IMG/VR virus record: IMGVR_UViG_3300042673_001351
Location: 18,597-82,596 of that record
Length of the DNA: 64,000 nt
Reading direction: 5' to 3' (one strand)
Source: a virus
Taxonomy: Duplodnaviria > Caudoviricetes
Within the stretch, counting starts at the first letter, position 1; each line of letters starts with the position of its first letter. Made by a program: the position numbers and the translations under genes. Positions 2,999 to 21,918 of the stretch are shown here, one piece after another. The notes under the pieces are model-generated. The model was not told the DNA's origin and ran no database searches. It saw nothing but the letters and a program-made list of their open reading frames with translations.

Positions 2999-3813
2999 TA
3001 CCTGATCTCCTTAATCCTATCAAGATATCTTAATCCGCCCATTCTATCTATTTGAGACTGGCCAGTGTCGTAAACAACATCGTTATCTTCAAACGGTAGC
3101 TGAATTAAATTTATATTAAAGTTTTTTTGAATTTCATTTGAATATTTTTCAATAAATTGATTATAGTTATGGGTTAAAGAAAATGGGGTATATTTATCCT
3201 CTACTGAATTTTTATTAATTGATATGTATTCGTCTGGGAAATTATAAATATCTACGCCACTATTAATTAAATCTATTGAAATACTTTCTTCTTCTCCGCA
3301 GTATTTTAAGTGAGTTGGTTGATTTATTATTGCAAAATCTTCAGACAATGCAAATATAAAATTTCTGTCTATATAATTTATTTTATTAAAATTTGCAGAT
3401 GGTACTCTTTCTGGCTCTAGCATGAACCAATTTTTATTTTTTAAGGTAACTGTAGAATTTCCAGATAAAATTGAGTTTTTGTTATTCTTTAAAAATTCAA
3501 CTGCATGGATGTCCCAATCTTTAGCTAATGAAACATCGTCTCCAATTTGCATATAATATTTTTTATTCAGTGACTTAAATGCATCCCGCTTATATTCAAT
3601 TGGGCTTTTAATAGAGTCCCACGTAACATATTTATAAACAATTGATGCATAAAAATCTGGTTGGTCTAGGGATCTAGTTCTGTCTACACTATTTTGATCA
3701 ATAATGTAAAAATATAACATATTTTTTTGACTAGATTTGTCTATAATTTCAGATACAGTTTTAAATAAATTTTTATTTTGATAGCTGTAAATGCATATAC
3801 CAATATTTTCCAT
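2998..3813 (-). CDS. GT-A glycosyltransferase resembling Skp1 hydroxyproline GlcNAc-transferase (Gnt1/GT60-like)
   Basis: IGICIYSYQN...KT...IIDQ, YYMQIGDD...DWD and GEEESIS...GVDIY parallel the family motifs IASYRD, YYLQIDSH...WD and GEE...GYDIY. The DSH motif is altered to GDD. Start refined to MENIG. Confidence 0.65.
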   Translation of the reverse strand: MENIGICIYSYQNKNLFKTVSEIIDKSSQKNMLYFYIIDQNSVDRTRSLDQPDFYASIVYKYVTWDSIKSPIEYKRDAFKSLNKKYYMQIGDDVSLAKDWDIHAVEFLKNNKNSILSGNSTVTLKNKNWFMLEPERVPSANFNKINYIDRNFIFALSEDFAIINQPTHLKYCGEEESISIDLINSGVDIYNFPDEYISINKNSVEDKYTPFSLTHNYNQFIEKYSNEIQKNFNINLIQLPFEDNDVVYDTGQSQIDRMGGLRYLDRIKEIR

Positions 3814-4463
3814 TATTTGAATGGTATCCATTTCATAGATTTACTATTTCTAATCTCTCTAAACGGAATAATATCGTATGCAATTGTTACTCTTGCTTGG
3901 TCTTGTTGCCAATCTCCTCTAGCATGGGGGTAGCCAGTTTCGGAAATAATTGCTCTATTATTTTTATTAACATTTTCAAATAAATCATTATTATTTTTAT
4001 CTAGCTTATAGTATGTTATGGATGGCTCGGCATCTACACAATAGTACCCGTGAAAATGTGGTATGCCAGTTCCTCCAAAATGATCATGAAGTTGCTCTGG
4101 ATTTTTTACTGGATCAACCTTATTCCCGATAGACTTATAGTCAAAATTAAACCAGCCATGTATTACATAGTTTTCAAAATTAAAATCTATTTCATAATAT
4201 TCACATGCTTTTTTTGTAAGATTTTTTAATTCACAATATAGGTTATATATCTCATTGATTGGAAACATAAAAATATTATAATGATTTATTCCAATTTTTG
4301 TTGCTGCGCCTGGTAAATTTTTATATTTATCTAAAACCTCATTAGATAAATTTAAAGAATTTTCTTTAATAATTTCATCGTTTATTTTATATAAATATTT
4401 TGATAGTTCTTGCGTATCATTATTTAAATATGATTCAAAAAATTTTTGTGGTTTATTTAACAT
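3813..4463 (-). CDS. 2OG-Fe(II) oxygenase-like protein
   Basis: GWFN...HDH...FHGYY...H...RVTIAYD; paralog of the adjacent gene. Confidence 0.7.
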   Translation of the reverse strand: MLNKPQKFFESYLNNDTQELSKYLYKINDEIIKENSLNLSNEVLDKYKNLPGAATKIGINHYNIFMFPINEIYNLYCELKNLTKKACEYYEIDFNFENYVIHGWFNFDYKSIGNKVDPVKNPEQLHDHFGGTGIPHFHGYYCVDAEPSITYYKLDKNNNDLFENVNKNNRAIISETGYPHARGDWQQDQARVTIAYDIIPFREIRNSKSMKWIPFK

Positions 4464-5104
4464 ATTGGCATCCAATGTTGTGGATGTGCATTGTTTGCTA
4501 TTAAACTTTTTAATGGAACTATATCGTATGCAATTGTTACTCTAGGGCCTTCCCAGTCCCAAGATCCCATTGCATGTGGATGTCCCATTTCTGATATGAT
4601 AAGCCTGTTGTCTTTATTGTGGTTATCAACTTCTTTACCAAAAACTTTATAATACGTTGTAGATGGCTCTGCTTTTACGCAATAGTATCCGTGAAAATAT
4701 GGAGCATACGGTCCACCGTGATCGTGCCAGTCCAGTTTTCCTTTGTCGTTATAATTAATATTAAACCAGCCTTGAATCATGTATTGTTGTTTTTCAAAAT
4801 CAACTTCATAATACTCACAAGCTTCTTTAACCATTTCTACAAGGTTTTTATATAGCTTATGTATTGATGGATGATAAAATTGAAAAACATTATACTCTCT
4901 CCATTTTATAGTAGATACGCTATCTGATGACAGCCAATGATCTTTTTCTGTAACCTCTGTTATTCCAGACAACTTTAAGTTTTCCATATTAGAATATTGA
5001 TTTTGTAAAAACTCTGCCAATTGACTAAGATCGTTATCTAAATATCTTTCAAAAAATTTATGCTCTTTGCCTGTTGGCTGGTTCATTTGCATATTATTAA
5101 TCAT
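4457..5104 (-). CDS. 2OG-Fe(II) oxygenase-like protein
   Basis: GWFN...WHDH...FHGYY...H...RVTIAYD. Confidence 0.7.
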   Translation of the reverse strand: MINNMQMNQPTGKEHKFFERYLDNDLSQLAEFLQNQYSNMENLKLSGITEVTEKDHWLSSDSVSTIKWREYNVFQFYHPSIHKLYKNLVEMVKEACEYYEVDFEKQQYMIQGWFNINYNDKGKLDWHDHGGPYAPYFHGYYCVKAEPSTTYYKVFGKEVDNHNKDNRLIISEMGHPHAMGSWDWEGPRVTIAYDIVPLKSLIANNAHPQHWMPIC

Positions 5105-5854
5105 TTATTTTCCCTTATACTGTTTACGTTGCCATACTATATTTTTATAATAGGCATAAATTGAAGACCTTCTTTTTTCATCTTTAATTTGATTCATTTC
5201 TTTCCCGTTAACCGAATAATCTATCTCCAAAGCCCAATCTTCTCTTTTAATTGGAATCATCTGAAATAGAGGTGTTCCTTTAGGTATTATACCAATAAAG
5301 TTCCTTTTTAGGAAGAAGGATGTAAATACTGGTGTGTGCCATAAATCGGAGTCTATTATTCCGCTAAGGGTGGTAAATGGCAAATCGTGTCTATTTAATG
5401 GGTGGGTTATTAATAAAGAATATCCTTTTGGTGTTTCCGAATACCAGTTTACTTTCCAACCAAAATGTAATGGGTGATGCTGTGTGGGGACTGGGACGTC
5501 TATCATTAATCTTTTGTCCACTATCATGTTGTGTCCTTCCCAGGAAAGTACTGGAAATCCGTTTTTATCTTGAGTTACATGTAAATCATATTCTAGGGTA
5601 TACATGTAACCAGAAGTTAATGCGTCAAAAAATGGCATGCATAATTTTGTTGAAGCAGCGCTTCCATCGGTTCCTCTATCATTAACTGGGTGCAGCTTGC
5701 TAATGTGATTAGATTTATAAAATCTAGAAAGCTTTTTATACCAATCTGGAAGATGAATTTTAGATTCTTCTGGCTCGACAATTAGTCCGTTGTTTAAGTC
5801 ATCGGGATTAATTGAAAATCCTGGTGTAAATTTAACTATTAATTCTTTTTTCAT
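5105..5854 (-). CDS. Conserved phage protein (DUF6065-like, possible dUTPase-like beta fold)
   Basis: PDWYK...KLCMPFFDA...GY...TPKGYS...HPLN...SGIIDSD...IPKGTPLFQMIPIKREDW. Confidence 0.5.
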   Translation of the reverse strand: MKKELIVKFTPGFSINPDDLNNGLIVEPEESKIHLPDWYKKLSRFYKSNHISKLHPVNDRGTDGSAASTKLCMPFFDALTSGYMYTLEYDLHVTQDKNGFPVLSWEGHNMIVDKRLMIDVPVPTQHHPLHFGWKVNWYSETPKGYSLLITHPLNRHDLPFTTLSGIIDSDLWHTPVFTSFFLKRNFIGIIPKGTPLFQMIPIKREDWALEIDYSVNGKEMNQIKDEKRRSSIYAYYKNIVWQRKQYKGK

Positions 5855-6560
5855 ATTCCCTTATTATTTTTTTAATAGTTTTTTTATCTGCATATACTTC
5901 TATATCAAATAAATACGAACCTCTTTTTATTAACCCGCAAATATTGTCTTCCATATGATTTTTAGAGTTTGTAAAATAAAAATCAACAAAGTTTGCTTCT
6001 TTTATTATAACATTTTCATCTGTTTTTGTAAAAGAATCTTTTTTTTCAATTATTTTTAGTGAAGGATTTTCTATATTGCATTTAATTAAATACTGTATGT
6101 CCATGTCTAAAAACCAAGGAATATAAATTTTAAAAATTCTTTTAGAAATTGCATTTTCATCTACAATATTATATTGATTTTCTGATGGGTAAAATTGACG
6201 TAGCCAGCATTTATCGGTTGCATAAAAAAAACTATTAATTGGATTTGATTTGAATACCCCCCTATGCCCTAGCAACGGATCAGCTGTTTGAATTAATATA
6301 TCCCCGTAGCTATAATATCTAATTGTTAAACTATTTTTAGAATTCTTTATTATCTCTGGCGGGTTAGAAAAATGATGGGCATACATGTTTACTGGTTTTA
6401 GAATTGATTGTTTATAGGCAGGATCAGATTTAACATATTCCCATTCTTTCCACTTTGGAAACAAATTAGAGGTATGACATATTTGTTCAAAAGTCATTGT
6501 TGACATTAGAGACCAAGATTCCGCTTCATAGGGCACTCTATTAACTGTCTTATTGGTCAT
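5832..6560 (-). CDS. Hypothetical protein
   Basis: 242-aa ORF overlapping both neighbours in the operon. Confidence 0.6.
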   Translation of the reverse strand: MTNKTVNRVPYEAESWSLMSTMTFEQICHTSNLFPKWKEWEYVKSDPAYKQSILKPVNMYAHHFSNPPEIIKNSKNSLTIRYYSYGDILIQTADPLLGHRGVFKSNPINSFFYATDKCWLRQFYPSENQYNIVDENAISKRIFKIYIPWFLDMDIQYLIKCNIENPSLKIIEKKDSFTKTDENVIIKEANFVDFYFTNSKNHMEDNICGLIKRGSYLFDIEVYADKKTIKKIIREYEKRINS

Positions 6561-7276
6561 TTATATGTTTTCTTTTTCCAAAATTTCAGTCTATATCCAT
6601 TTTGAAATACTGATCTAACCTGTAAAGTTTTTTCTTTTATTTTAGTATCTGACTGCCTGTCATCGCTTATTGAGCTCTCCCAGTCTTCTCTTTTAAATGG
6701 TATTACTTGAATGATTGGAGTACCTTGTTTAATTATTCCCTTAAATCCTTTTTTAACAAAAAAAGATAGATATCCGTCTGACATATATGCGTCTGTGTCT
6801 ATCACTCCAGGGATAGATCTAATGGGAGAGTCCTCTGCATGCATTGGAGAAGTAAATAAACAACTGTGCCCTTCCTCTGTTTTAACTAACCACATTGGGT
6901 GAATTCTAATAATTTCTTCGTGAAAATAATCTGGGATGGGATATTTAGCCATCTGCTCTTTTAAATGATGTGAAAGAATGTATTCTTTCCGCATTCCCAT
7001 TATCTCAGATGTTACCTGTACTTTTATTTTATCTTCTGTTGCGTCTATAAATATATCCGTTGGGCATCTTAAATAGTATCCAAATGTCATTGAATCAAAT
7101 ATAGATTGACATTTTTTAATTGTTAGCATCATTGTTCCGTTATGAATATTTTGATCGTTATTTAAATAGCTTTCTTGATGCTTCCACCACTCTGGTATGC
7201 TGGACGCAACACTAACTGGCTCTGGGAATGCTTTTTTATATAACCTATACTTTGGAATAAATTCTATTTTAATCAT
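6557..7276 (-). CDS. Conserved phage protein, paralog of 5105-5854
   Basis: PEWWK...KKCQSIFDS...GY...PGVIDTD...IKQGTPIIQVIPFKREDW; start refined to the ATGA overlap. Confidence 0.55.
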   Translation of the reverse strand: MIKIEFIPKYRLYKKAFPEPVSVASSIPEWWKHQESYLNNDQNIHNGTMMLTIKKCQSIFDSMTFGYYLRCPTDIFIDATEDKIKVQVTSEIMGMRKEYILSHHLKEQMAKYPIPDYFHEEIIRIHPMWLVKTEEGHSCLFTSPMHAEDSPIRSIPGVIDTDAYMSDGYLSFFVKKGFKGIIKQGTPIIQVIPFKREDWESSISDDRQSDTKIKEKTLQVRSVFQNGYRLKFWKKKTYK

Positions 7277-7836
7277 GCTAGTGGTATCCATTTTTGATAG
7301 TACTGCCTGTATAGATATTCTAGAGGAGAGATATTAAATGATAGTATTGTTAAACCATTACTTATTTTTTTAAACAATATCTTTGATGATGAATCTAAAA
7401 ATATTAATTGTCCAGGAATTAAATCAATTTTTTCATCATTTATAAAAATTTGATCTTTATTGCAATCTATAACATAAAATCCAACAAATGTAGTTTTATA
7501 ATTAGGGGCAAAATTTAGATATGTGTCTAATGTAATAGTTTCTTTTTTAACTATATTGCCAAGTAAATAAAAATAATTTCTTTCAAAATTAACTCCATTT
7601 TTAATGCAATATTCTTTTGTTAAATCAGATATTTCTTTATATAGAATATGAATGTTTTTGTTATACATTGCAAAAAAGTTAAATGTTTTATAATCAATTA
7701 AAGAAACTTTTTTAGGTTTAAACCCTAGCTTAATTCCTGGATTAAATTTATAAACATATTCGTGCATCTGAGAGATCATTTTATTATACTCGGAAAGCAT
7801 AGTTTTGTTATTAATTGAATTAATATTTTTTATCAT
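7273..7836 (-). CDS. Degenerate 2OG-oxygenase-like paralog lacking the HxD motif
   Basis: FNFF...IHILYKEI...EYC...FVGFY...FNISPL...W.P aligns by eye with 3813/4457, but without the metal ligands. Confidence 0.45.
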   Translation of the reverse strand: MIKNINSINNKTMLSEYNKMISQMHEYVYKFNPGIKLGFKPKKVSLIDYKTFNFFAMYNKNIHILYKEISDLTKEYCIKNGVNFERNYFYLLGNIVKKETITLDTYLNFAPNYKTTFVGFYVIDCNKDQIFINDEKIDLIPGQLIFLDSSSKILFKKISNGLTILSFNISPLEYLYRQYYQKWIPLA

Positions 7837-8467
7837 TTGGCTCCCAAATGCTCATAGAGTGAAATAATGCTGGAAATATCGGATCTTTGTATATGACTAA
7901 TTCTGCTGGCATATTTATTTCAGGAAGTTTCCCAGGTGTCATCCCAACCTTAACTATTTTTTCAATTTTATCTTTGTTTAAATTAAACCTTTTTTTAGTT
8001 GCTGATGCTATGAGGGAGGATCCGCTTAATGCTACGGCCTGTGTCCCTTGTGTATAGCCTGGGCCTAATCTTGGTAAAATGTTAAAAAATGTACACCATA
8101 TTGGATATCCAATTAAAGCTAATGATTCTATGTACTTTTTCTTTCGATGTATTGGGCTAGTATAGAACCTATCTGTTATTGCAGTATAGTGATCTTTATC
8201 ATATCCGTCTATAATTATTGTAGCCCAAGATGCTGGATAATCGTTGTTAATAAAATAAGACATAACAATTGTGCCAGACTCATTATCATCATTTTTATAA
8301 AGACATTCTATAGCTTGAGAATTCCATTTATCGGTAAGCACTGTATATTGTGCCCAAGTACCTTTTATGTATTGTGGATACCTTCTAAATTTAGGTACAG
8401 GTTTACCTTTAAAATACCTAACTCCAGAAATTCCCATTAAGCGTAATTTCTTTACTTTTTTAAACAA
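7820..8467 (-). CDS. Hypothetical protein (weak GNAT-like motif)
   Basis: FYTSPIHRKKK resembles GNAT motif A; otherwise unassigned. Confidence 0.45.
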   Translation of the reverse strand: MFKKVKKLRLMGISGVRYFKGKPVPKFRRYPQYIKGTWAQYTVLTDKWNSQAIECLYKNDDNESGTIVMSYFINNDYPASWATIIIDGYDKDHYTAITDRFYTSPIHRKKKYIESLALIGYPIWCTFFNILPRLGPGYTQGTQAVALSGSSLIASATKKRFNLNKDKIEKIVKVGMTPGKLPEINMPAELVIYKDPIFPALFHSMSIWEPNDKKY

Positions 8468-8482
8468 ATTAATTCCTGACTA

Positions 8483-9772
8483 CTAGGCTTGGTCTTGAGA
8501 ATCTCTCCATTGTTGATACATTGCATCTAGCTTATCGCTAAATGTTTCATCGCTAGAAGTTAATGCGTTTGCATCACTTTTTGCTCTATATGAATCGTGT
8601 ACTAGCGCATTGTCTGTAAAGAATAAGTCGTATGGCTCTACGTCAATTGATATTAGTAACTCTTTTTGTGTAGTTACTTTATAGTCTGTAATTTCTTTCC
8701 AGTCATTTTCGCTTGGTGAAAAAATTAAATCTGTTTCCAATACGCTTGATGATGGTTGGAATTGAATCTGTCCATCTCTTTTTATTAAAATAAAGTGTTG
8801 TAAAGAATATTTATTTCCATTAATAACAATAGCTCCTTCGTCAGAAATTCTTGCTGCCATTGCAACAATGGTAGTTTCGGCTGGGGATATGTTTGCGCTA
8901 TTAACAGACCAATTTTGTAAATATTCTAATATTGCTGTATTTGAAACATCTATTCCCTCGATATTAGCAGAGTATAAAACGTCGCCAACGCTTAGGTTGT
9001 GTGCAAGGATTAATCCTTCTGGCACCTTTGATTTAATAACTGTTTCTGCTCCAACCGATTTTGGAGTAAAGCCAAATGGAGTAAATCCAAACGGAGTAAA
9101 TCCAAACGGAGTAAATCCAAACGGTGTAAATCCAAATGGGGTAAATCCAAATGGGCTAAAACTAAATGGTGTTGTAGTAACTGAGTTTGAATTTCCGCTG
9201 TATGATGAAAAACCATTAGCGTTTTGAGCTCTTACCCTAACGGTTTGAGCTTCATTTCCGTTTTCTGATAGGTTAGCGCTAAATGTACTAGAGTTATATG
9301 ACGTAACATCATTTTCATGATCAATTAATCCATATCCAGTAATGTCTTTTCCACCATTATTTCCTGGGGCTGACCAAGAAACAGAGTTCGTTTCTGCTCC
9401 ATTATTTGAAAGACTTGGAGCGCTTGGTGTTTGTGGAACTGTTGTTGCTGTTATTGAATTACTTGCGTCTGACGGCACAGAATTACCAACTGCGTTTGTA
9501 GCTATAACTGTAAATGTATAACTAGTTCCAGATTGTAAACCTTCTACCGTAATAGGAGAAGAAGATCCAGAAGCAGTATAACTTCCTGGACTTGAGGTAA
9601 CTGTATATGAAGTAGCTGGTGGGGAATCTACGCTCATTGTAAATGGTACAGATGAGGCTCCATTATTAAATGCTCTATCTGTTCCTATATCTGTTGCTGT
9701 TCCGATAATTGGCTTAAATGGCTCTAAAAAGTCATTGGCCGATTGGCTCATTCTACCTGCTTGTTTTGACAT
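8483..9772 (-). CDS. Two FN3 domains + (FGFTP)n repeat + Hint domain + short C-terminal tail
   Basis: FN3 motifs (GLQSGTSYTFTVIATNAVG; VSWSAP...VRAQNANG). Hint: SVGAETVI...LSVGD...YSLQH...ISIDVEPYDLFFTDNALVHD (8594-9058). Confidence 0.8.
   Translation of the reverse strand: MSKQAGRMSQSANDFLEPFKPIIGTATDIGTDRAFNNGASSVPFTMSVDSPPATSYTVTSSPGSYTASGSSSPITVEGLQSGTSYTFTVIATNAVGNSVPSDASNSITATTVPQTPSAPSLSNNGAETNSVSWSAPGNNGGKDITGYGLIDHENDVTSYNSSTFSANLSENGNEAQTVRVRAQNANGFSSYSGNSNSVTTTPFSFSPFGFTPFGFTPFGFTPFGFTPFGFTPFGFTPKSVGAETVIKSKVPEGLILAHNLSVGDVLYSANIEGIDVSNTAILEYLQNWSVNSANISPAETTIVAMAARISDEGAIVINGNKYSLQHFILIKRDGQIQFQPSSSVLETDLIFSPSENDWKEITDYKVTTQKELLISIDVEPYDLFFTDNALVHDSYRAKSDANALTSSDETFSDKLDAMYQQWRDSQDQA
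9062..9166 (-). repeat. Seven 15-bp coding repeats: FSFSP + 6x FGFTP
   Basis: Tandem units that differ mostly at synonymous positions. Confidence 0.95.
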
Positions 9773-9796
9773 ATATAATCTCCTCTATTATTTTCT

Positions 9797-11980
9797 TTAA
9801 GCTAAAAGATCTCCGAAAACTAACCAACCGCTTGGAGTTTTCATTGCTGTTACAACCGAATTTGTAGTTCTAAACTTTAATCCTGGTGTACCAACAACAC
9901 TGTTTGTTGAAGCAAATGATGCTCCAGTTCCTGATGCTTGGTAGAAATCAATTGATTGACCAGTTGAGTATCCAGATGAAGGAAGAGTAATTTGTACTGC
10001 TCCATTTATTGGGATAAACTTGTCTTGCTCACCAGATGCGAGTGTTTCTGATGATGTTCTCTCTGTTCCAAATGTTGTGATAGATGGAACGCCAACTTTT
10101 GTCTGTGTTCCGTCTGAGAATGCAATTCCAGATGCTGAAACAGTTACTGTGCCAGTAAATGTTGGAGCATCAATTGGTGACTTGGTGTCTATTTGAGTCT
10201 GAATTGCTGATGTGACTCCATTTAGATATTGAAGTTCTGTATTTGATACATCTCCAATAGTTGCTGACGCTGCTTCAAATCCAGCAACCTGTAGGTTATC
10301 AAGTGATCCTTGAGTAAAGTTGACTGTGGTAGCTGGTTCGTCTGTTACGTCCTTGAACAACTTCCACTTAGCGTCTGATACGTCTCTTACTATACCAGCA
10401 TGCTTTCCTGAACCATCGTTATAAGCAACTACAAGACCAAGGTCTACTGTGTTACTTGCATTTTGGTGGGCAAGCTGAAGCATGTTATCTTCAATTGTAA
10501 TAGATGTTGCTGATGCGTTAAATGTTGTACCGTTAATTGTTAGGTCTCCATCAACTACAAGGTTCTGATCAATTTCAACTGAGCCTGTAAATACTGCTCC
10601 AGACAATGAAGCCTTTCCATCAATTTGTCCTTGAATTCCTGAAGTTACTCCGTTAACATATCCAATCTCAGTTGATGAAACATCTCCGATTGATGTTGTT
10701 GAAGGAAGGACTACTGTTCCAGTAAATGTTGGGCCTTCTAAGTTAGCCTTTAGGTCAAGTGCTGCTTGTGTAGCAGTTGAAACTGGCTTATTAGCATCTG
10801 TCGTGTTATCAACATTTCCAAGGCCTACTGAAGACTTTGTAAGCGCTGCTACTGCAGTTGAGATCTTTGTATCTGCTGCTGTTCCTGCTGCTGTAATTGC
10901 ATCTGATTCTGCTGTGTCTGCGTACTCTTTTGTTGCTAGAAGTGAAGTATCTGCAATTCCGTGTACGTTGGTTGTGTCTGCTGTGAGAGTACTGATAGCA
11001 TCATCTACATATTTTTTAGTAGATGCTTGTAAATCAAATGTAGGAGCACCGTTTAAAGTTAAAGCTCCAGTCATAGATGAACCAGATTTTAACATTAAAT
11101 CTGCTGTGTTAACAATGCCATGAACATCTGTTGAGTCAGTACTATGATTAGTCATTGCGGTTCCTATTGCTGAATCTGCATAAGTATTTGCGTCTGCCTC
11201 TGCTTGATCTACATAAGATTCAGTAGCAAGTTCTGCTGTATCTGCAATTCCGTGTACGTTTGTTGTAGATGATCCGTGTGCTATTCCTGCTGCAGACAAA
11301 TTTCCAAGTGATGTTGTGACTCCTGCAGCATAGTTTGCGTCATCTCCAATTGCTGCAGCAAGCTCGTTAAGTGTATCTAGTGCTCCTGGTGCCGCATCTA
11401 CTAAATTGTTAACTGCTGATGTAATATCAGATGTCAACGCTACAGTTCCTGAAGAATTTGGGAAAGTAATTGTTCTGTTTGCTGTAGGGTCTACTACTGT
11501 AAGAATAGTTTCATAAGCATTTGCAGTTGCGCCTTCTAAAACAATACTTGACTTAGGAACTAACAGGTTACCGTCAACATCTAGCTTTGCTGGTCCGCCT
11601 GCATTTCCGACGTCTGCTAGTAATACATAATCTGCGGCTGTTGAGTTTTCTAATCCAGTTACTTGACTGTCAACATAAGATTTAAGTGCTACAACTGATG
11701 AGTCAATATTAAGAGAAATTGTATTTGTGGCATCGTTGTAAGATTTTGTAAGACCTGATCCCATTGAAAGGGCTGTGTCAATTGCATCTTGTGCAATTTC
11801 TGTAATTCCTGGTGCATCTGATGCGATGTATGAAAGGCTAGTCCATGCTGTGCTTCCAGTTCCAACTTTAATTTTTCTGGTGTCTGTTTCAACACCCATT
11901 TCACCTGCAGCTAGTGTAGGATTTGCTGAGGTCCATTCTGATGCTGTTCCTCGTCTTACTTGAATTCTTACTGTTGACAT
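9797..11980 (-). CDS. Tail fibre-like protein with Mtd N-terminal-like domain
   Basis: IQVRRGTASEWTSANPTLAAGEMGVETDT; VHGIADT repeats; VGLGNVDNT; C-terminal WLVFGDL. Confidence 0.75.
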   Translation of the reverse strand: MSTVRIQVRRGTASEWTSANPTLAAGEMGVETDTRKIKVGTGSTAWTSLSYIASDAPGITEIAQDAIDTALSMGSGLTKSYNDATNTISLNIDSSVVALKSYVDSQVTGLENSTAADYVLLADVGNAGGPAKLDVDGNLLVPKSSIVLEGATANAYETILTVVDPTANRTITFPNSSGTVALTSDITSAVNNLVDAAPGALDTLNELAAAIGDDANYAAGVTTSLGNLSAAGIAHGSSTTNVHGIADTAELATESYVDQAEADANTYADSAIGTAMTNHSTDSTDVHGIVNTADLMLKSGSSMTGALTLNGAPTFDLQASTKKYVDDAISTLTADTTNVHGIADTSLLATKEYADTAESDAITAAGTAADTKISTAVAALTKSSVGLGNVDNTTDANKPVSTATQAALDLKANLEGPTFTGTVVLPSTTSIGDVSSTEIGYVNGVTSGIQGQIDGKASLSGAVFTGSVEIDQNLVVDGDLTINGTTFNASATSITIEDNMLQLAHQNASNTVDLGLVVAYNDGSGKHAGIVRDVSDAKWKLFKDVTDEPATTVNFTQGSLDNLQVAGFEAASATIGDVSNTELQYLNGVTSAIQTQIDTKSPIDAPTFTGTVTVSASGIAFSDGTQTKVGVPSITTFGTERTSSETLASGEQDKFIPINGAVQITLPSSGYSTGQSIDFYQASGTGASFASTNSVVGTPGLKFRTTNSVVTAMKTPSGWLVFGDLLA

Positions 11981-12021
11981 ATTTATTACCCCTTATTTGC
12001 TAATTATAGCATTTATTTTTG

Positions 12022-12378
12022 TTAAACTATAACTCCAGAATCAAATGTTATCCCATATAATGAAGTATCTGGGCCACCACCGTCTGCGAATTTAGTTGCT
12101 GTTGTACTTACTCCGTTTGCTTGAACTGTATAGACTGGAAGACCATTATAATCTATAGCTAGTCCAATGTCCATAAAGCCTATTTCTGTTTGACTATCTG
12201 GAATGTCCGACACAAATGCAATTGGGCTCCAGGTTCCATTTAACTGGATCTGTAGCTTATTTGTTGTTGTGTCAAATCTAAGGGGTGTATTGCCTAATAC
12301 AACGTTAGAGTCAAAGGTAGCGTTTCCTGCTACGTTTAACCCGTTTTTTACTCTAAAGTTTTTATCTGTTGTTGCCAT
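12022..12378 (-). CDS. Virion-associated protein
   Basis: KNFRVKNGL N-terminus shared with the neighbouring structural gene. Confidence 0.55.
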   Translation of the reverse strand: MATTDKNFRVKNGLNVAGNATFDSNVVLGNTPLRFDTTTNKLQIQLNGTWSPIAFVSDIPDSQTEIGFMDIGLAIDYNGLPVYTVQANGVSTTATKFADGGGPDTSLYGITFDSGVIV

Positions 12379-12410
12379 TTAAGTTCACATATCCCCTAAT
12401 TGTTTTTTGT

Positions 12411-12431
12411 GGGGAGATTCAGGCTCTCCCC
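12411..12431. terminator. GC-rich hairpin between structural genes
   Basis: ggggaga-ttcaggc-tctcccc. Confidence 0.45.
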
Positions 12432-12446
12432 TAGCCTTTTATTTAA

Positions 12447-14039
12447 TTATTTAATTAATGTTCCAACTACAACAACTTCAGTGTTATTGTTTGCTGGTGT
12501 TACTCGAATTCTTACATCTGAGCCAGAATAATCTGCAGTTATTGCAGCTAACTCTGTTCCGTTTGAATATGTAATTCCATATTCAGAAACTGCTACGTTG
12601 TTAGAAGTATCAAGTGTAACTACTAAGTCTGATACCTGGGTGTGGCTACCATTTTTTGCTTTAATTACAAGCTTAGCGCTTCGGTAATCTTCTGCTGCCC
12701 ATGAGATAGCAGTTGTTGCTGCAGCGGTTACAATATTTCCAGTTGTTGCTGCAACTTGCTTGGCAACAGAGTTGTAATTAATTGCTGTAAATGATGTAGT
12801 TCCGTTTTGCTGTGCTGTATTAGCTGCTGCTGCTGTGGCTTCTGCTGCTGCTTGAGCTGCGTTAGCCTTTGATGTTGCATCTGCTGATGCTGTTGAGATA
12901 GCGGCTGCTTGGGCTGCGTTGGCCTTTGATGTTGCATCTGCTGCTGCTGTTGCTTCTGCTGCAGATTGGGCTGCGTTGGCCTTTGATGTTGCGTCTGATG
13001 CTGCTGCTGATTGGGCTGCGTTGGCCTTTGATGTTGCATCTGCTGCTGCTGTGGCTTCTGCTGCTGCTTGAGCTGCGTTGGCCTTTGATGTTGCATCTGA
13101 TGCTGCTGCAGATTGGGCTGCGTCTGCTTCGCCCTTAGCAAATGCTGTGGTTGCAATCTGAGTTGTGTTAGTATCTGCTGCTGCTGTAGGAGCTGTTGGA
13201 ACTCCAGTAAGATCTGGAGAAGCAAGCGGTGCCTTTGTTCCCAAAGCTGTTGTAATAGTTGTTGTGTAATTAGCGTCATCATTAATTGCTGCTGCTAATT
13301 CATTTAATGTATTAAGAAGTGCTGGTGCACCATCTACTAATGAATCTACTGCAGTTGAAATTGCTGTATTACGGTTTGAAACCTCTGTTGAGATTGCAGT
13401 TGAAAGTGCTGATGCTGCAGTGGCTTCTGCTGCTGCTTGAGCTGCGTTGGCTTTAGTTGTAGCATCTGTTGCTGCTGCTGTAGTTGCTGCAGACTGTGCT
13501 GCGTTAGCCTTTGATGTTGCATCTGCTGATGCTGTTGCTTCTGCTGCTGCTTGAGCTGCGTTAGCCTTTGATGTTGCATCTGCTGATGCTGTTGAGATAG
13601 CGGCTGCTTGGGCGGCATCTGCCTTAGTGGTTGCATCTGCTGATGCGGTTGCTACTGAGGCTGCGTCGCCTGATACTCTAAGTGCTGCTTCTGCTGCTAC
13701 TTTTGTTGTAGCGTCTGTTCCTGCTGCTGTAATTGCTGCTGACTGTGCTGCGTTAGCCTTTGATGTTGCATCTGCTGATGCTGTTGCTTCTGCTGCTGAC
13801 TGTGCTGCGGCTGCTGCGCCTGATGTATCAAATACGCCAGATTTAATATTAAGCTCTCCAGCAATAACTTCCATCTGTGTTGATTCAACAGAGTTTATAA
13901 GATTGGTTCCACCAACAAGATTGAGAATGTAAGCATCTCCGCCTGTTTCTGTAAGTATGTTTTGGCCATTGATTGTTCCTGTTGATCCTTCAACTACAAG
14001 GCCTTGTTTGATTCTAAAGTTTTTTACTACCGTTGCCAT
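12447..14039 (-). CDS. Ala-rich coiled-coil tail fibre protein
   Basis: Many ADATSKANAAQ repeats; APALLNTLNELAAA and PTAPTA...NTTQIATTAF fibre motifs. Confidence 0.75.
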   Translation of the reverse strand: MATVVKNFRIKQGLVVEGSTGTINGQNILTETGGDAYILNLVGGTNLINSVESTQMEVIAGELNIKSGVFDTSGAAAAAQSAAEATASADATSKANAAQSAAITAAGTDATTKVAAEAALRVSGDAASVATASADATTKADAAQAAAISTASADATSKANAAQAAAEATASADATSKANAAQSAATTAAATDATTKANAAQAAAEATAASALSTAISTEVSNRNTAISTAVDSLVDGAPALLNTLNELAAAINDDANYTTTITTALGTKAPLASPDLTGVPTAPTAAADTNTTQIATTAFAKGEADAAQSAAASDATSKANAAQAAAEATAAADATSKANAAQSAAASDATSKANAAQSAAEATAAADATSKANAAQAAAISTASADATSKANAAQAAAEATAAAANTAQQNGTTSFTAINYNSVAKQVAATTGNIVTAAATTAISWAAEDYRSAKLVIKAKNGSHTQVSDLVVTLDTSNNVAVSEYGITYSNGTELAAITADYSGSDVRIRVTPANNNTEVVVVGTLIK

Positions 14040-14055
14040 TTTATCTCCTGCCGTC

Positions 14056-14613
14056 TTAAGACTTTAAAGACGTTCTGTAATATCTAGCGGTTACAGATCC
14101 ACTTATTGGTGCTACGTTTAAACTTATTATACCTGAATTTTCTTCAAAAGTAACATTAGCAAGAGTACTGCTTGTGTTAGATATAATATTTGATTCTACT
14201 ACATTTAAATTTGTTCCATCGTTTAATAATAAAATATCTGATGTTGCGTATTCGCTTCCTTTTGAAATCTGAAGCTTGTATGAAACTGTCCTGTATGCTG
14301 TTTTTGAAAACTCATCTACTTTTGTTTTGTTTTCAATTCCCGCAATTGTAAGGTCATTGTTTCCTTCTAGGCCTAAAAGAACTTCTGCCACTGAGGTTGA
14401 GTTTTCAATGTCTTGCAATTGAGCAATTACATCTGCTACCTTATAGTCTAAAGAGTTTACATCTTGAGAGCCATTGACTCCAACTTTTGCTTGTAATGCC
14501 TCTATCGCATCATTAGCGTTAGTATGTTGTTGCGAGTGAGATGGACTAGATAACGCATCCGTTGAGTTTGGATTTGTTAATGAGTCTATCGAACTTGGAA
14601 AATTTGTTGCCAT
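14056..14613 (-). CDS. Virion structural protein
   Basis: MATNFPSSIDSL...HSQQH...NDAIEALQAKVG, a phage structural N-terminus. Confidence 0.6.
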   Translation of the reverse strand: MATNFPSSIDSLTNPNSTDALSSPSHSQQHTNANDAIEALQAKVGVNGSQDVNSLDYKVADVIAQLQDIENSTSVAEVLLGLEGNNDLTIAGIENKTKVDEFSKTAYRTVSYKLQISKGSEYATSDILLLNDGTNLNVVESNIISNTSSTLANVTFEENSGIISLNVAPISGSVTARYYRTSLKS

Positions 14614-14679
14614 TGTTTTATTGCTCCAAAATTATGACTTGTAGGTATATTATATCCTATTTATTGTTATAGGACACAC

Positions 14680-15681
14680 CTATTTTTTTATTAAATTTTG
14701 CCATTCTGTATACATTACTATAAGCTTTTCTGAAAAATCCTCTTCTGATGAATTGATTGCATTTGGGTCTAGTGCTGCGTTGTAGGAATCATGGACTAAG
14801 GCGTTATCTGTAAAAAATACATCATATGGCTCTACGTTTATAGAAACTACTAGCTCTGTAGAGTTTATTGGCATCCACTGAGTGACTGGGTTCCAGTCTT
14901 GTGTCATTGGAGAAAATATGAAATCTGCTAATGTAACATCAGTAACATTTTTAAATTTTATTCCTTCATTATTTTTAATCAGAACCCAGTGCGCTTTAGA
15001 ATATTTGTTTTCATTGATAACAATAGCCCCATCTGTAATTCTTGCAGCCATTGCAACTACGGTAGTTTCTATGTCTGTATCTATTAATGTGTCTTGTGTT
15101 GACCAATTTTGTATGTAATTTGCAATTTGATCATTAGATGTATCAATTCCTTCAATTGCAGCAGAATAAAGTACGTCTCCAACTTTTAAGTTATATGCCA
15201 ATATTAATCCTTGTGGATTTTTACTTTTAACTAAAGTAGCTGCTCCTAAAGATTTACCTCCCTCGCCTGGGGTGGGTGCAAATGAAAAACCTGTAAAATT
15301 ATATGTTGTAAAATCATATGGAGGCACTACAACTGGTGTAAATGAAAATGGATTCAATTCTTCCCAGGTAAAGCCATATGGCGGGGGATCAACTGGAGGA
15401 TCTGGTGGTGCGGTAAATGAAAATGGTGTAAAGCCAAATGGAGTAAAGCTAAAAGATCCATATGTGTATTCTATTTGAGTTCCTACGGGAACAACTGAAT
15501 TTTCTGCAATAGACTGATCAATTATTTTTCCACCCAAAGATTCATTTGAAGTTCCTGTGTTATTTTCTATAACAGATAATCCTAAACTATTTAATAATGA
15601 TAAGGCTTCTGACCTAACCATTCCAACAGTATTTGGAATAGATACCCTTTTTTTAATTTTTGAAGATCTAAAGCGTCTCAC
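14680..15681 (-). CDS. PASTA domain + [F/Y]xFT/Pro-rich segment + Hint domain + C-terminal tail
   Basis: IPNTVGM...EA...L..LGL...IIDQS...VPVGT (PASTA). Hint: SLGAATLV...YSKAH...INVEPYDVFFTDNALVHD (14788-15252). GTG start overlaps the upstream TGA. Confidence 0.75.
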   Translation of the reverse strand: MRRFRSSKIKKRVSIPNTVGMVRSEALSLLNSLGLSVIENNTGTSNESLGGKIIDQSIAENSVVPVGTQIEYTYGSFSFTPFGFTPFSFTAPPDPPVDPPPYGFTWEELNPFSFTPVVVPPYDFTTYNFTGFSFAPTPGEGGKSLGAATLVKSKNPQGLILAYNLKVGDVLYSAAIEGIDTSNDQIANYIQNWSTQDTLIDTDIETTVVAMAARITDGAIVINENKYSKAHWVLIKNNEGIKFKNVTDVTLADFIFSPMTQDWNPVTQWMPINSTELVVSINVEPYDVFFTDNALVHDSYNAALDPNAINSSEEDFSEKLIVMYTEWQNLIKK

Positions 15682-17039
15682 GCCTTTAGGTCTCCTAAAA
15701 CTACCCAAGAATTTGCTGATCTTTTAATTAAACTTGCGCTTGACCATTGAGATCTTAATTTTAAACCTGGTGTTGCATTTGGGGTAAATCCGTCTCCAGC
15801 AATAGTAACTTGATTTGATGTAGTTTGTAATACTTCAATATATGTTCCAATAGGGAAATTATAGGTAGAGTCGTTTGGTATTGTCAAAGTGCTAACTTCT
15901 GTCATCTCTATCATTTTGTTTGCATCTGAACCTTGTAGTGTGTATGAAGAAGATTGAGAATTTGTTACAATTAAAAACTTTTCTATATCTGAGGTGTTAT
16001 CCACGTTTCCAAGCCCAACCATTGTTTTTGTAATGCCTGATACGGTGCCTGTAAATGTTGGTGAGGCTAATGGAGCTTTAAGATTAAGAGCGTTTAATGT
16101 GTCTGTTGATATTGGTTTAAGAGCGTCTGTTGTATTATCAGCATTTCCTAAGCCTACCATATCTTTAGTAATACCCGAAACCGTTCCAGTAAATGTTGGT
16201 GAGGCTAATGGAGCTTTTGCTGTTAATTCTGTGGTTATTGTTGCTGCGTACGATGCGTCGTCATTAATTGCTGCGGCTATTTCATTTAAAGTATTTAAAG
16301 CACCTGGTGCTGCATCTATTAAGTTTGAAATTGCAGTTCCAACGTATGTTTCAGTTGCATATCCAGTTAAATTTGGAATGGTTGGTTTGCCAGAAAGATC
16401 ATCATATGCTCCGCTAAACAAAGAAGGCTTACCAGTTAAATCTACATAAGAGCCGCTAAACAAAGAGGGCTTGTTAGTTAAATCGTTATAAGATCCACCA
16501 AATAGTGTTGGCTTATCAGTTAGGTCAATATAAGATCCGCTAAACAGTGTTGGTTTATCGGTTAAATTATTATAAGACCCAGGAAATAAAACAGGCTTGT
16601 TGCTTAAATCATTATAGCTAGTAGGAACTTGTGATAGCAACGCTATTGTTCCTGATGCGCTGGGAAGATTTACTGTTATGTCTGAGGCTACGTCTGGGGA
16701 TTGTAGTGTTAATTCATAATCGTTTGCAGTAGAGCCTTCTATAATAATTTTGTCTTTTGGAATTAGTAGGTTTCCGTCAATATCTAATTTTGCTGGGCCT
16801 CCTGCATTTCCAACATCTCCAACTTCCACATATGAAGACAAGGTGTTTTCTAAATCTTGAGTGGTAAGAGAGCTGTAGTATGAAGTGCTACTCCAACTAG
16901 ATCCGTTTCCAATTTTAAATTTATTTAAATCTGAGGATATAGCAATTTCTCCAGCAAGCAATATTGGATTATCTCTAACCCAGTCAGACTCTATGTCTCT
17001 TCTTAATTGAATTCTAACTACCACTTGAGCTTCCTCCAT
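15678..17039 (-). CDS. Tail fibre-like protein with Mtd N-terminal-like domain and 14-aa repeats
   Basis: IQLRRD...NPILLAGEI...FKIGNG; about six LFSGSYxDLTxKP repeats; WVVLGDL end. Confidence 0.75.
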   Translation of the reverse strand: MEEAQVVVRIQLRRDIESDWVRDNPILLAGEIAISSDLNKFKIGNGSSWSSTSYYSSLTTQDLENTLSSYVEVGDVGNAGGPAKLDIDGNLLIPKDKIIIEGSTANDYELTLQSPDVASDITVNLPSASGTIALLSQVPTSYNDLSNKPVLFPGSYNNLTDKPTLFSGSYIDLTDKPTLFGGSYNDLTNKPSLFSGSYVDLTGKPSLFSGAYDDLSGKPTIPNLTGYATETYVGTAISNLIDAAPGALNTLNEIAAAINDDASYAATITTELTAKAPLASPTFTGTVSGITKDMVGLGNADNTTDALKPISTDTLNALNLKAPLASPTFTGTVSGITKTMVGLGNVDNTSDIEKFLIVTNSQSSSYTLQGSDANKMIEMTEVSTLTIPNDSTYNFPIGTYIEVLQTTSNQVTIAGDGFTPNATPGLKLRSQWSSASLIKRSANSWVVLGDLKA

Positions 17040-19983: not shown

Positions 19984-21918
19984 CTATGCGGTTATATCTA
20001 CAATCTCACAGTTTCCGTCAGATGTGCATGCAAGGGTTTGATTTCCAGATGTTCCATCTTCCGTCTCGTAAAAAGAAAGATCAGCCCATCTAATTTCTTT
20101 AGGCATTTTGCCCAAAAGATCTAAATATTCTTCTTTAGATATCTCTTGATATGGAGCCTGCTTGTATGTATGCTCTGACATCGGTAAAAATGAGATTCCA
20201 GAAACATCGTCAAAATTCTTGTATACCCAAGCTCCTACTTCCATCCATTCGTCTTCTTTAACTGAAACGGTAATTGATGGCTTGTGCTCACACCAGGCAC
20301 GTTGGTAAACTAACCAAATGTTTAAATGTTCAATAGCGGTTAGGTCATTTCTAACAATTGCACCTTCTGGTGCTTTTACTGGAAATGAAAATACGTAAGT
20401 TTCATTTGGCTTCATTACGTCATCCTCTACTGGAATACCTACTTCTTTTAAGAAAGTAGAAATTGGATCTCCCTTGGAGCCACGAACTGTTCGAATATAG
20501 TATGGAGAATGCCATGCATGCATTCCTGAAGACACCCCGACCAATTGAGATACTGTTCCTGATGGTTTTACGCATGTAATAGCGGCAGACTCTGGAATCC
20601 CAATTTTCCCAGCCTCATCTTTATTTTTTGCTCTTGCTGATTCTCTAAGTAAATTTAAAAATTCTTCCAAAGATTCCAAATTTTCTTTTCCAGACATAAA
20701 CTTATGCCCAAATTGTCCAGTAAGAGATACTCCTAATAGTCGCTCTTCTTCTGTGTTGTCCTTCCAAATTTTACGAAGGTATTTAAAGTCTGTAAGAGTT
20801 GACTGCCATGTTCCAAGAATGGTTGCCAACTCAACTTTGCGTTCAATATCTTTCTTTGTATCATTTTCACGTAATACGACTTCTGAAAGATTACAAAACT
20901 GATAAGGACGTAAAATAATCTCTGAGCAAGGGTTAGTTCCATAGTGTATATCTGGATCTCTTCTTCCATATTTGGCTGCTTGGGCTTGAGCTGCGGCCAC
21001 ATTGTATATACCTCGTTCTCCAGACTTTGAATCATATAAAGATTTCCATTCTGCTATAAATTGTTCCATTTGTGGTTTTCTAGAATACGCCACTGAGTTG
21101 TTAGAGAGTGCACGTTGTGAATTGTGCTCCCACCAATTTCCAGTTTTTGCTTGTGCCATTTCAATATCATTAATATTAGAAAGAGAAATCAATGCAGATC
21201 TGCGTACTCCGCCAACCACTACAATTTCACCTATTTTACACATAATGTCGTGTGCTTCAATTGGCTTGAATTGTCTACCTGCTGCATTTTTAAATTTAGC
21301 AATTGTAAAATCAAAAAGATTAACTAAAGGCTGTGGGCCAGAAGATCTTCCACCCATAGTTTTAAGCCTTGCGCCTGCGGGACGAAGTTTGCTTACATCA
21401 ATTGATGGAATCTGTCCAGTCCAAAGAAGTGCAAGTAATTCACGAAATGCTTTCGCCCAACCAGACTTAGAATCTTCAACAACAATTACCGTTGTAGATT
21501 TTTCAAAAGATTCTGGAATTATTGGAAGTTTATTTACGTATTTATATTCGACAGAAAACCCAACTCCAGTTCCACACATTAAAATGTACATTGTTTCGTC
21601 AAATGAACGGGGATTATCTACTGGTACAAATGAACAATTGTATCCCGCAACATGATCTCTCTCTAGCGCTGGGCCAGCGGTCATTACGGATCTCATTGAT
21701 GGCATAACGTTTCTATCTAGCACCGCTTGTTTTAATTCTGTTATTAGTTTTGATGAAGGCTCATATGAATGCTCTTTAAATAAATGATCTAGCATAAAAG
21801 AAAAATAACGATCTACTGTTTCGCTCCAAGTTTCTCTACGATTTTCTTCTGGCATCCAACGTGCATATCGAGACAATGCAATAAAGTTTTCGTACGGGTT
21901 TTCAATAGATGTTGACAT
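19984..21918 (-). CDS. nrdJ: Class II (B12-dependent) ribonucleotide reductase
   Basis: PSMR, NCSF, GGVRRSA, TNPCSEI, CVKPSGT, C-terminal CxxxxxC; no small subunit nearby. Confidence 0.9.
   Translation of the reverse strand: MSTSIENPYENFIALSRYARWMPEENRRETWSETVDRYFSFMLDHLFKEHSYEPSSKLITELKQAVLDRNVMPSMRSVMTAGPALERDHVAGYNCSFVPVDNPRSFDETMYILMCGTGVGFSVEYKYVNKLPIIPESFEKSTTVIVVEDSKSGWAKAFRELLALLWTGQIPSIDVSKLRPAGARLKTMGGRSSGPQPLVNLFDFTIAKFKNAAGRQFKPIEAHDIMCKIGEIVVVGGVRRSALISLSNINDIEMAQAKTGNWWEHNSQRALSNNSVAYSRKPQMEQFIAEWKSLYDSKSGERGIYNVAAAQAQAAKYGRRDPDIHYGTNPCSEIILRPYQFCNLSEVVLRENDTKKDIERKVELATILGTWQSTLTDFKYLRKIWKDNTEEERLLGVSLTGQFGHKFMSGKENLESLEEFLNLLRESARAKNKDEAGKIGIPESAAITCVKPSGTVSQLVGVSSGMHAWHSPYYIRTVRGSKGDPISTFLKEVGIPVEDDVMKPNETYVFSFPVKAPEGAIVRNDLTAIEHLNIWLVYQRAWCEHKPSITVSVKEDEWMEVGAWVYKNFDDVSGISFLPMSEHTYKQAPYQEISKEEYLDLLGKMPKEIRWADLSFYETEDGTSGNQTLACTSDGNCEIVDITA

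Follow-up and report, generated by a model that had tools for sequence, protein, structure and literature searches.

Predicted Hint domains joined to aromatic repeats at the C-termini of tail-fibre-module proteins in an uncultured phage

Hint domains have been described in several settings, and the sections of the literature cited here give the following picture of them. BIL domains yield mainly N- and C-cleavage products (PMC7664689, PMC7765530), and A-type BILs are defined by a His-Asn end, usually by the absence of a nucleophile at position +1, and by their occurrence in variable bacterial proteins (PMC7765530). Hedgehog uses the first acyl shift alone to transfer its N-terminal domain (PMC7664689). 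BIL2 of Tetrahymena BUBL1 hands the ubiquitin-like domain upstream of it to an acceptor, conjugating it to a Lys of the substrate by an isopeptide bond (PMC8616854). In inteins, Asp can stand in for Asn in C-terminal cyclisation, and cyclisation of Gln has been documented too (PMC4031507). Here we describe two genes for proteins with predicted C-terminal Hint domains in a 64,000-nucleotide stretch of DNA (the window) from a virus of the Caudoviricetes. The window covers positions 18,597 to 82,596 of IMG/VR record IMGVR_UViG_3300042673_001351, which has 82,596 bases and an estimated completeness of 76%. The product of open reading frame (ORF) 8483-9772(-) is called P0001 and that of ORF 14680-15681(-) is called P0002. 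The results below establish the Hint fold with its conserved catalytic positions, the protein architecture and the surroundings of the genes. On sequence and structure-model evidence we consider it reasonably probable that both proteins are accessory proteins of a tail-fibre module, in which a BIL-like Hint domain activates a Lys-Ser bond and then cleaves or splices the protein.

The two proteins end in the same cassette, which consists, in order, of [F/Y]xFTP repeats, a Lys-Ser junction, a domain of 155 amino acids (aa) and a 35-aa tail. Only these C-terminal cassettes aligned in a BLASTP comparison, with 52% identity over 254 columns (E 3e-81). All features given below for the two genes are on the minus strand. 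P0001, the FN3-type protein of 429 aa (8483..9772; slot B of the fibre module), was defined from its ORF and translation, and 127 homologs were found. Its N-terminal part contains two FN3 beta-sandwich modules at residues ~20-200 (9173..9715). They were recognised by Pfam fn3 in two stretches (E 1.2e-9), and titin and FN3 chains were the top PDB sequence matches of the protein. AlphaFold2 (AF2) modelled this region with a predicted local distance difference test score (pLDDT) of mostly 83-97, with dips to 67-76 near residues 121-130 and 161-170. The aromatic pentapeptide repeat PFSFS(PFGFT)6P follows at residues 202-237 (9062..9169; Tandem Repeats Finder and AF2). Lys238-Ser239 (9056..9061) is the predicted N-terminal scissile or acyl-shift junction, as judged from conservation and from alignment to 2lwy and to gp108 of the cultured phage AD1. 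The 155-aa Hint domain extends from S239 to D393 (8594..9058), with block B at S323-L-Q-H326 and block G at H392-D393, and was identified by AF2, Foldseek and profile search. Ser394 at +1 and the 35-aa tail (8486..8593), which ends in an amphipathic helix, were assigned from conservation and AF2; this helix occupies residues 411-428 of the full-length model and 174-191 of the domain model.

P0002 (14680..15681; slot A, GTG start) is the PASTA-type protein, assigned from its ORF and a Pfam PASTA match (E 2.5e-9). Its residue numbers count from the TTG at 15708. A loose aromatic and Pro-rich region (15256..15456), in which a regular-expression count on the sequence found eight [FYW]x[FYW][STA]x units, leads to the junction K152-S153. 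The 155-aa Hint domain (S153-D307; 14788..15252) was identified by its identity to the P0001 cassette and by the family profile (E 3.1e-49); it has S-K-A-H as block B and ends in H306-D307, and S308 and a 35-aa tail (14683..14787) that aligned with the tail of P0001 follow. The GTG at 15681 is most likely the real start, rather than the TTG given by the longest-ORF listing, because the N-termini of all 16 PASTA-type homologs listed fall at this position and because this GTG shares bases with the TGA that ends the upstream fibre gene (GTGA; 15678-15684). The overlap suggests translational coupling of the fibre and PASTA-Hint genes. The original prediction, made from the letters of the sequence, had described two proteins with unrelated N-termini and one shared cassette, FSFSP(FGFTP)6 with synonymous-site variation in the first ORF, about eight looser units among prolines in the second and a start of the second ORF at 15681. 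It had also given both Hints a Ser start, a block-B SxxH, a His-Asp end and Ser at +1. All of this was borne out.

None of the Pfam Hint models matched P0001 or P0002 even at E<=1, and none of the NCBIfam Hint or intein models did so at E<=0.1, so the Hint assignment rests on profile and fold searches. The 192-aa C-terminal part was searched against 1.84 billion cluster representatives (E<=1e-3), and the family recovered comprises 135 representative clusters (50% identity). Alignment A1 was made of 45 of these members. It grades from the window type, which starts with 'KS[IVL]G..T[LM]V.T..G' and ends with 'EP.D.FFT...LVHDS', into textbook Hints with the Cys start 'GGGC[LIF]' and the end 'LVHN'; it is this subgroup with Cys1 and a His-Asn end that lets the family grade into textbook Hints. 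Pfam models matched some of the 45 members (Intein_splicing 11, PT-HINT 6, Hom_end_hint 4, Hint_2 3, Hint 2 and Vint 1). Among PDB sequences, the A1 profile matched 2lwy, a BIL of C. thermocellum, with E 7.7e-12, BIL2 of Tetrahymena (6tmm/6y75) with E 1.6e-10 and the gp41-1 intein with E 9e-9. In the profile alignments the window Ser fell on intein position 1 (Cys1 of 2lwy, mutated to Ala), and the block-B His fell on the His of the 'FDH' motif of 2lwy.

AF2 run on A1 gave a pLDDT of 95.0 and a predicted template modelling (TM) score of 0.90. The top Foldseek matches of the model in PDB were BIL2 (6y75, E 2.6e-6) and the fused Aes123 PolB1 split intein (9hth, E 3.1e-6); the BIL 2lwy (TM 0.81 on target) and the Ssp DnaB and gp41-1 mini-inteins were matched as well, with Hedgehog domains lower. 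In total 38 PDB structures matched at E<=1e-3, and the 35 listed are all BILs, inteins or the Hedgehog autoprocessing domain. Matches in BFVD were uncultured-phage proteins auto-named 'PASTA_pknB domain containing', 'Fibronectin type III' or 'Hint domain containing protein'. The look-alikes in ESM-Atlas were mostly viral where taxa were recorded (Uroviricota clusters), and most were named 'hypothetical protein'. Judged from profiles and models, the 155-aa domains are Hint folds, as had been proposed.

The locus resembles each of the described systems in part, and BIL domains most closely. The BIL 2lwy was the best profile match and a top fold match, and BILs share with the window copies a nucleophile at position 1, the block-B xxH and a non-mobile existence in non-conserved, modular, surface-type proteins. 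Cleavage, the main outcome described for BILs, is also one of the two outcomes proposed here. The window copies differ from BILs in having Ser1 rather than Cys, His-Asp rather than His-Asn and a conserved Ser at +1 (BILs are described without a +1 nucleophile). They also differ in their phage fibre context, their extreme C-terminal position, the obligatory Pro/aromatic repeat ahead of them, and in being missed by Pfam and NCBIfam. They fall outside the definition of A-type BILs given above, which the Cys1/His-Asn subgroup and AD1 gp108 fit better. BIL2 of BUBL1 (6y75, 6tmm) was the top Foldseek match and the second-best profile match, but it belongs to a eukaryotic polyubiquitin-like locus, has Cys1, a terminal Asn and ubiquitin-like flanks, and is 14-15% identical to the window domains. 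The Hog part of Hedgehog has the same layout, with the Hint at the C-terminus behind a functional N-terminal module, and it performs only the N-terminal acyl shift with release or transfer of the module, as may happen in the window proteins. It is unlike them in its Cys nucleophile, sterol-recognition region, cholesterol acceptor and metazoan origin, and its structural match was much weaker (1at0, E 1.6e-3; 6tyy, E 6.3e-4). Instead of the Gly-Cys-Phe junction and sterol-recognition region of Hog, the window has a Lys-Ser junction and then a 35-aa one-helix tail.

Class-1 mini-inteins with a terminal Asp or Gln share Ser1, the block-B His, the penultimate His, a cyclisable end and Ser+1 with the window domains, which end in His-Asp rather than His-Asn, Asp being a documented substitute (PMC4031507, in the section cited). 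Such inteins lie in a conserved host protein with intein-less alleles, whereas the C-exteins of the present family are tiny or absent. Instead of intein-less alleles and two real exteins, we found no such allele among ten Hint-less homologs, and 88 of 97 representatives have <=15 residues after the terminal D or N of the domain (median ~5). Pretoxin-HINT (PF07591) is like the family in that it lies near the C-terminus of long modular proteins and in its weak Pfam matches (6 of the 45 members of A1 and 7 of 81 full-length representatives), with none to P0001 or P0002. There, a toxin domain follows the Hint; here, a 35-aa tail follows, or 1-7 aa in most members.

Peptidase S74 is a self-cleaving C-terminal intramolecular chaperone of phage tail spikes and fibres, which acts by Ser-Lys dyad hydrolysis. 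It resembles the domain proposed here in that it removes itself from the C-terminus of phage fibre proteins in a single turnover, but its fold and chemistry are unrelated, and scans of the window proteins gave no S74 sequence or fold match. It is already on record that some UniProt relatives are auto-named 'Hint domain containing protein'. In the CC-licensed PMC and bioRxiv literature, searches on Hint domains in tail or virion proteins and on PFGFT found only terminase inteins and unrelated peptides, and no account of the present architecture. What appears to be new within the Hint superfamily is a C-terminal Ser1...His-Asp cassette of phage fibre modules with an obligatory aromatic/Pro tether.

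All catalytic positions of a class-1 Hint are present. K(-1), S1, the block-B His326, H392, D393 and S394 showed no exception among 122 close homologs, a set made up of P0001, P0002 and 120 listed homologs. Among 131 representatives of the wider family, the block-B His was present in 120, with Ser or Thr three positions earlier in 125. The Hint ended in D in 72 representatives and in N in 51, 123 in all, and its penultimate position was mostly occupied by H (82), Y (25) or F (18). The commonest class (27 of the 97 representatives with an N-terminal junction) combined Ser1/His-Asp with a Ser or Thr at +1, and the Cys1/His-Asn class mostly had no +1 nucleophile. The fact that the Hint is C-terminal throughout the family argues that the N-terminal junction would be the processing site common to all members. 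The fact that the terminal D or N and the Ser or Thr at +1 are kept even with a C-extein of 3-5 aa argues that the C-terminal chemistry may matter as well. What follows the Hint varies: the tail has 35 aa in the window's clade, P0149, P0305 and relatives have a helical tail of ~98 aa, and in P0308 and P0338 the tail carries the Listeria-Bacteroides repeat domain PF09479. P0168 has two Hints in tandem.

The cassette sits behind many kinds of modules, which supports the earlier description of it as portable. Among 81 full-length representatives fn3 was found in 27 and PASTA in 21, and others carried Ig, PKD, TIG, Calx-beta, collagen or DUF5977 domains. From these sequences the cassette appears to be widespread in uncultured phages. 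A search with P0001 residues 1-237 returned 35 new proteins, of which 25 have a Hint. The other ten lack it but include no Hint-less allele, and for this reason the Hint is regarded, on sequence evidence, as a fixed and non-mobile domain.

Both Hint genes lie within a run of tail-fibre-like genes, as identified by PHROG matches. A gene for a 727-aa protein (9797..11980, minus strand; PHROG tail-fibre and structural-protein families) is located directly upstream of the FN3-Hint gene, and a gene for a 453-aa protein (15678..17039, minus strand; PHROG tail-fibre families) immediately precedes the PASTA-Hint gene. These fibre genes are paralogous (33% identity over 435 aa) and have their C-terminal domain in common, and a module of fibre gene plus Hint-cassette gene is duplicated in the window. 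The locus was compared with 17 related IMG/VR loci (L001-L017). The slot-B pair was present wherever the region was covered, with the FN3-Hint ortholog directly downstream of the ortholog of the 9797-11980 fibre gene. L001, L009 and L012-L017 have the slot-A pair, and L006 and L007 have neither of its genes; none of the related loci had one gene of this pair alone. To judge from gene content, fibre gene and Hint gene come and go as a unit. The slot-A protein of the L012 group has 914-944 aa and carries this PFGFT-Hint-tail cassette too. L009 has two Hint types, Cys1...His-Asn in slot A (5952-6827) and Ser1...His-Asp in slot B (9296-10582). A tree of 18 cassettes, drawn to look for exchange between the two slots, did not separate the groups at its backbone; it left 7 of its 15 inner branches open and had one very long branch, that of L009 slot A.

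The two genes after the slot-B Hint gene (7273..8467, minus strand), 7820-8467 (215 aa) and 7273-7836 (187 aa), also keep their place. Their homologs follow the Hint gene in L001-L017. In distant phages, which have a tail-less Hint of ~40% identity, a fibre paralog is followed in turn by the Hint protein, the 7820-8467 homolog and the 7273-7836 homolog, and the last two were found at 24-27% identity in the distant phages L023, L024, L026 and L027. Neither gene matched a Pfam or NCBIfam family, and a PHROG scan of 7820-8467 gave no match either; this gene is a weak GNAT look-alike in ESM-Atlas, with 135-148 of 256 features shared. The 187-aa protein has paralogs at 4457-5104 and 3813-4475. Related loci were also sought with the family member P0141 in viral contigs, and none were found.

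Cultured relatives were found through distant members of the family. Full-length P0001 had no tblastn match at 1e-5 among 50,697 phage records. Distant family members used as queries matched Dickeya phage vB_DsoM_AD1 and Erwinia jumbo phages, with homologs in Erwinia pEa_SNUABM phages. AD1 gp108 (L020:3002-4441), a protein of 479 aa annotated as 'virion structural protein', is encoded in a tail gene cluster. It has collagen-like repeats followed by '...SSTSG/C...FTHEH...LAHN/T' at its extreme C-terminus, where the slashes mark the junctions; the Gly-Cys junction lies at residues 328/329. It matched the family profile with an hhalign probability of 99.5% (E 6e-23), and its Cys1 aligned with S239. 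Its counterpart in another cultured jumbo phage (L021:3020-4453) is likewise collagen-like, with a C-terminal Cys1...His-Asn Hint of the family. The L020 and L021 proteins are annotated as virion or tail-fibre proteins. AD1 has been placed among the 'hairy Myoviridae', and the proteins that form its tail 'hairs' are given as unknown; the cited sections of its publication report neither virion mass spectrometry nor inteins (PMC6143709).

Tandem Repeats Finder described the P0001 repeat with a period of 15, 7.2 copies, 91% matches and a score of 146. The six PFGFT units of the window differ solely at synonymous third positions (CCA/CCG, GGA/GGC, ACC/ACA/ACT). In the 17 related loci, 111 of 128 units were exactly PFGFT, and the variant units were mostly those that open or close the array. 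The Gly codons in these loci were GGA in 55, GGG in 24, GGT in 18 and GGC in 16 cases; for Thr all four codons were in use, for Phe both and for Pro three. Because so many units are identical in peptide despite free synonymous variation, the PFGFT peptide is under purifying selection, as had been proposed. From the codons used, DNA homogenisation alone cannot account for its uniformity. The copy number ranged from 2 to 12 in the 122 close homologs. An antisense ORF, 8868-9227(+), of 119 aa with GVNPN repeats, was rejected as a gene, being a mere reverse-complement reading of the PFGFT repeat.

In the full-length model of P0001 the repeat residues 204-237 had a pLDDT < 50, for which reason the repeat is read as a predicted disordered tether. 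A pentapeptide-repeat beta-helix was considered for (PFGFT)n and dropped, the pLDDT there being 33-50. Richness in Pro and aromatic residues before the Hint is a property of much of the family. The 40 residues preceding the Hint were >=50% P/F/Y/W/G in 58 of the 94 representatives having >=40 aa upstream, and the median fraction was 0.55 in these 40 residues versus 0.27 in the rest of the protein. The low-complexity units vary by lineage (PFGFT, PPYDN, poly-Pro (PPPP), FFPP, GAFGAF, FSPFGV). PASTA-type homologs show the same loose aromatic/Pro pattern as P0002, and in the Cys1 group the linker before the Hint is often Gly-rich or Pro/Thr-rich instead. Of the 25 new Hint-bearing proteins found with the N-terminal region of P0001, 23 had >=4 aromatic units. 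Eight of the ten Hint-less ones had no repeat unit, one runs off its 1,158-nt contig and another is apparently frameshifted. No complete Hint-less protein with the repeat was found among the 35. Repeat and Hint had been expected to abut across homologs and not to occur independently, which agrees with these searches.

In the reading we favour, P0001 and P0002 would consist of three parts: a surface-binding beta-sandwich module, a disordered aromatic/Pro tether and a fixed Hint that acts once in cis. Ser1 (S239 or S153) would attack the carbonyl of the preceding Lys, and the block-B His would assist the N-to-O acyl shift. The shift would turn the C-terminus of the repeat into an ester. By one route this ester would be hydrolysed, and the binding module with its tether would be freed from the Hint. 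By the other, transesterification to Ser+1 and then cyclisation of Asp would excise the Hint and join the tether to the 35-aa helical tail; this splicing route is applicable because Ser+1 and the terminal His-Asp are also invariant. The Hint probably matures or attaches these proteins. That the chemistry takes place, and which outcome is chosen, we infer from the alignments and models.

Several points weigh against this reading. Processing is a prediction only for every member of the family, and an oxyester formed at Ser1 is less reactive than the thioester of a Cys. In 43 of 131 representatives Y or F takes the place of the penultimate His, and the C-terminal chemistry therefore cannot be uniform family-wide. 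If there were N-cleavage only, it would be puzzling that the terminal Asp or Asn and the Ser or Thr at +1 are retained with a C-extein of 3-5 aa. If there were splicing, it would be puzzling that a non-mobile Hint is retained merely to be removed. The tail helix, modelled by AF2 with high confidence, could also fit a stable, uncleaved unit of domain and helix, and the strict conservation of PFGFT suggests that the repeat may be more than a tether.

It is possible, though unlikely, that the Lys-Ser ester is resolved not by water or Ser+1 but by an outside nucleophile, in an intermolecular ligation like that of Hedgehog or BUBL1. On the virion, the acceptor could be a Lys or the N-terminal amine of a protein such as the paired fibre; on the host, it could be an amine or hydroxyl group in the cell wall. 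The FN3 or PASTA module would become covalently attached through the aromatic tether. The top structural match is an isopeptide conjugator (PMC8616854, section cited above), and Hedgehog offers a precedent for transfer by the first acyl shift alone (PMC7664689, likewise). Ligation would explain why small members have no virion-anchor domain recognised by Pfam besides FN3 or PASTA, and why every Hint gene is paired with a fibre paralog with which it is gained or lost. The two genes conserved directly downstream (7820-8467 and 7273-7836) would also be in keeping with it. However, the acceptors are hypothetical candidates only, most members have nothing beyond the Hint that could recruit one, and the large members P0123 and P0168 have long N-terminal regions able to anchor them without ligation. 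The conserved Ser+1 and Asp point to intramolecular chemistry instead. In its most specific form, to which we give slightly less credence, the Hint would be an enzyme-free, built-in ligase whose latent Lys-Ser ester passes the FN3 or PASTA module on its PFGFT tether to the outside nucleophile. If this were true with the paired fibre as acceptor, virions would be decorated covalently without a dedicated anchor domain. With a host peptidoglycan amine near PASTA as acceptor, part of irreversible adsorption would be literally covalent.

The Hint might also be catalytically silent and kept for structure or docking, for example for binding to the fibre or virion, with the protein remaining intact. 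The high-confidence packing of the tail helix with the domain in the AF2 model, the annotation of AD1 gp108 as a virion structural protein and the frequent replacement of the penultimate His all fit this explanation. It is nevertheless distinctly unlikely, since Ser or Cys at position 1, the block-B His and the terminal D or N are the best-conserved positions of the family, which would be unexpected for a structural role, and Ser1 is invariant in every close homolog.

Two further explanations concern the repeat and draw on the genes around it. In the window's clade a conserved array of small genes with several paralog sets lies downstream of the fibre module (1111-7291). It holds the 2-oxoglutarate (2OG)-Fe(II) oxygenase paralogs 1800-2462 (PF13640, E 4.5e-16) and 2456-2998, a DUF6065-like pair (5105-5854 and 6557-7291), and weak glycosyltransferase-like matches at 2998-3831 and 5832-6560. 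The array might modify virion proteins. As an addition to the favoured reading, in which the Hint would be for maturation only, the repeat could be an extensin-like tether whose Pro is hydroxylated or whose Thr is glycosylated by phage enzymes. The array, with its oxygenase of the P4H type (PF13640) and the glycosyltransferase-like matches, would supply candidates, each repeat unit has one Pro and one Thr, and one representative of the family matches Pfam Extensin_1. We find this addition highly doubtful. No oxygenase array was found within 8 kb downstream of the cassette in distant loci, the repeats of several lineages contain no Thr or Ser, and 2OG-Fe(II) oxygenases are common in aquatic phages.

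The original prediction went further and regarded the repeat as the core of a ribosomally synthesised and post-translationally modified peptide (RiPP), which would be enzymatically modified and then released, cyclised or ligated by the Hint. One part of this holds, in that the carbonyl the Hint would activate belongs to the Lys that ends the repeat, and the purifying selection on PFGFT and the oxygenase paralogs and other genes of the downstream array would suit it too. The core peptide itself found no support and is very unlikely. The repeat is predicted to be disordered and is continuous with a folded FN3 or PASTA module of ~200 aa as its C-terminal tether, which is not a leader-core arrangement. 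Release or cyclisation would need a second cleavage, for which no second site or protease is evident, and neither Pfam, run on the ten downstream genes, nor NCBIfam, run on the nearest eight, gave a match to a RiPP maturase family. The drift of the copy number also speaks against it, as do the unrelated low-complexity units of distant members, even plain poly-Pro, and the distant loci that keep the Hint cassette without a nearby oxygenase array.

An ordinary selfish mini-intein invading these genes is hardly credible: although Ser1, the block-B His, the penultimate His, the cyclisable end and Ser+1 make up the full class-1 set (PMC4031507, as cited above), no Hint-less alleles were found among the ten Hint-less N-terminal homologs, the domain has just 155 aa and no homing endonuclease, the host proteins are non-conserved and modular, most members have a C-extein of 1-7 aa, and two paralogous slots have the cassette as a fixed part throughout the related phages.

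The ribonucleotide reductase of the window (19984-21918) shares 66% identity with its counterparts in Streptomyces phages. Also encoded are proteins of Pfam GP88 (33787-34539) and DUF932 (36139-37197) and one tRNA-Asp (37228-37302); GP88 and DUF932 are families common in actinophages. PASTA is typically a Gram-positive peptidoglycan-binding module. From the reductase match and these two associations, that of GP88 and DUF932 and that of PASTA, the host is probably actinobacterial and the phage an actinophage, despite a G+C content of ~35%. Between the two Hint genes lies a gene for a fibre-like protein of 530 aa (12447-14039) with long Ala-rich tandem repeats, of period 57 or 114 nt in the DNA. 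The repeat peptide is roughly 'ADATSKANAAQAAAEATA', and the repeats flank a conserved tail-fibre motif.

Hints have been known as selfish inteins, as Hedgehog processors and as the BILs of bacterial surface proteins; here, a large family of them is built into fibre-module proteins. Hundreds of 'hypothetical proteins' missed at present by Pfam and NCBIfam models can be named as members of this family. The predicted Ser1...His-Asp/Ser+1 chemistry and the strictly conserved aromatic tether could yield new oxyester-based tools for protein ligation. If the domain is active, the accessory fibres or adhesins of these phages would undergo a Hedgehog-style self-maturation, possibly a self-ligation, a step that is missing from current models of virion assembly and adsorption.

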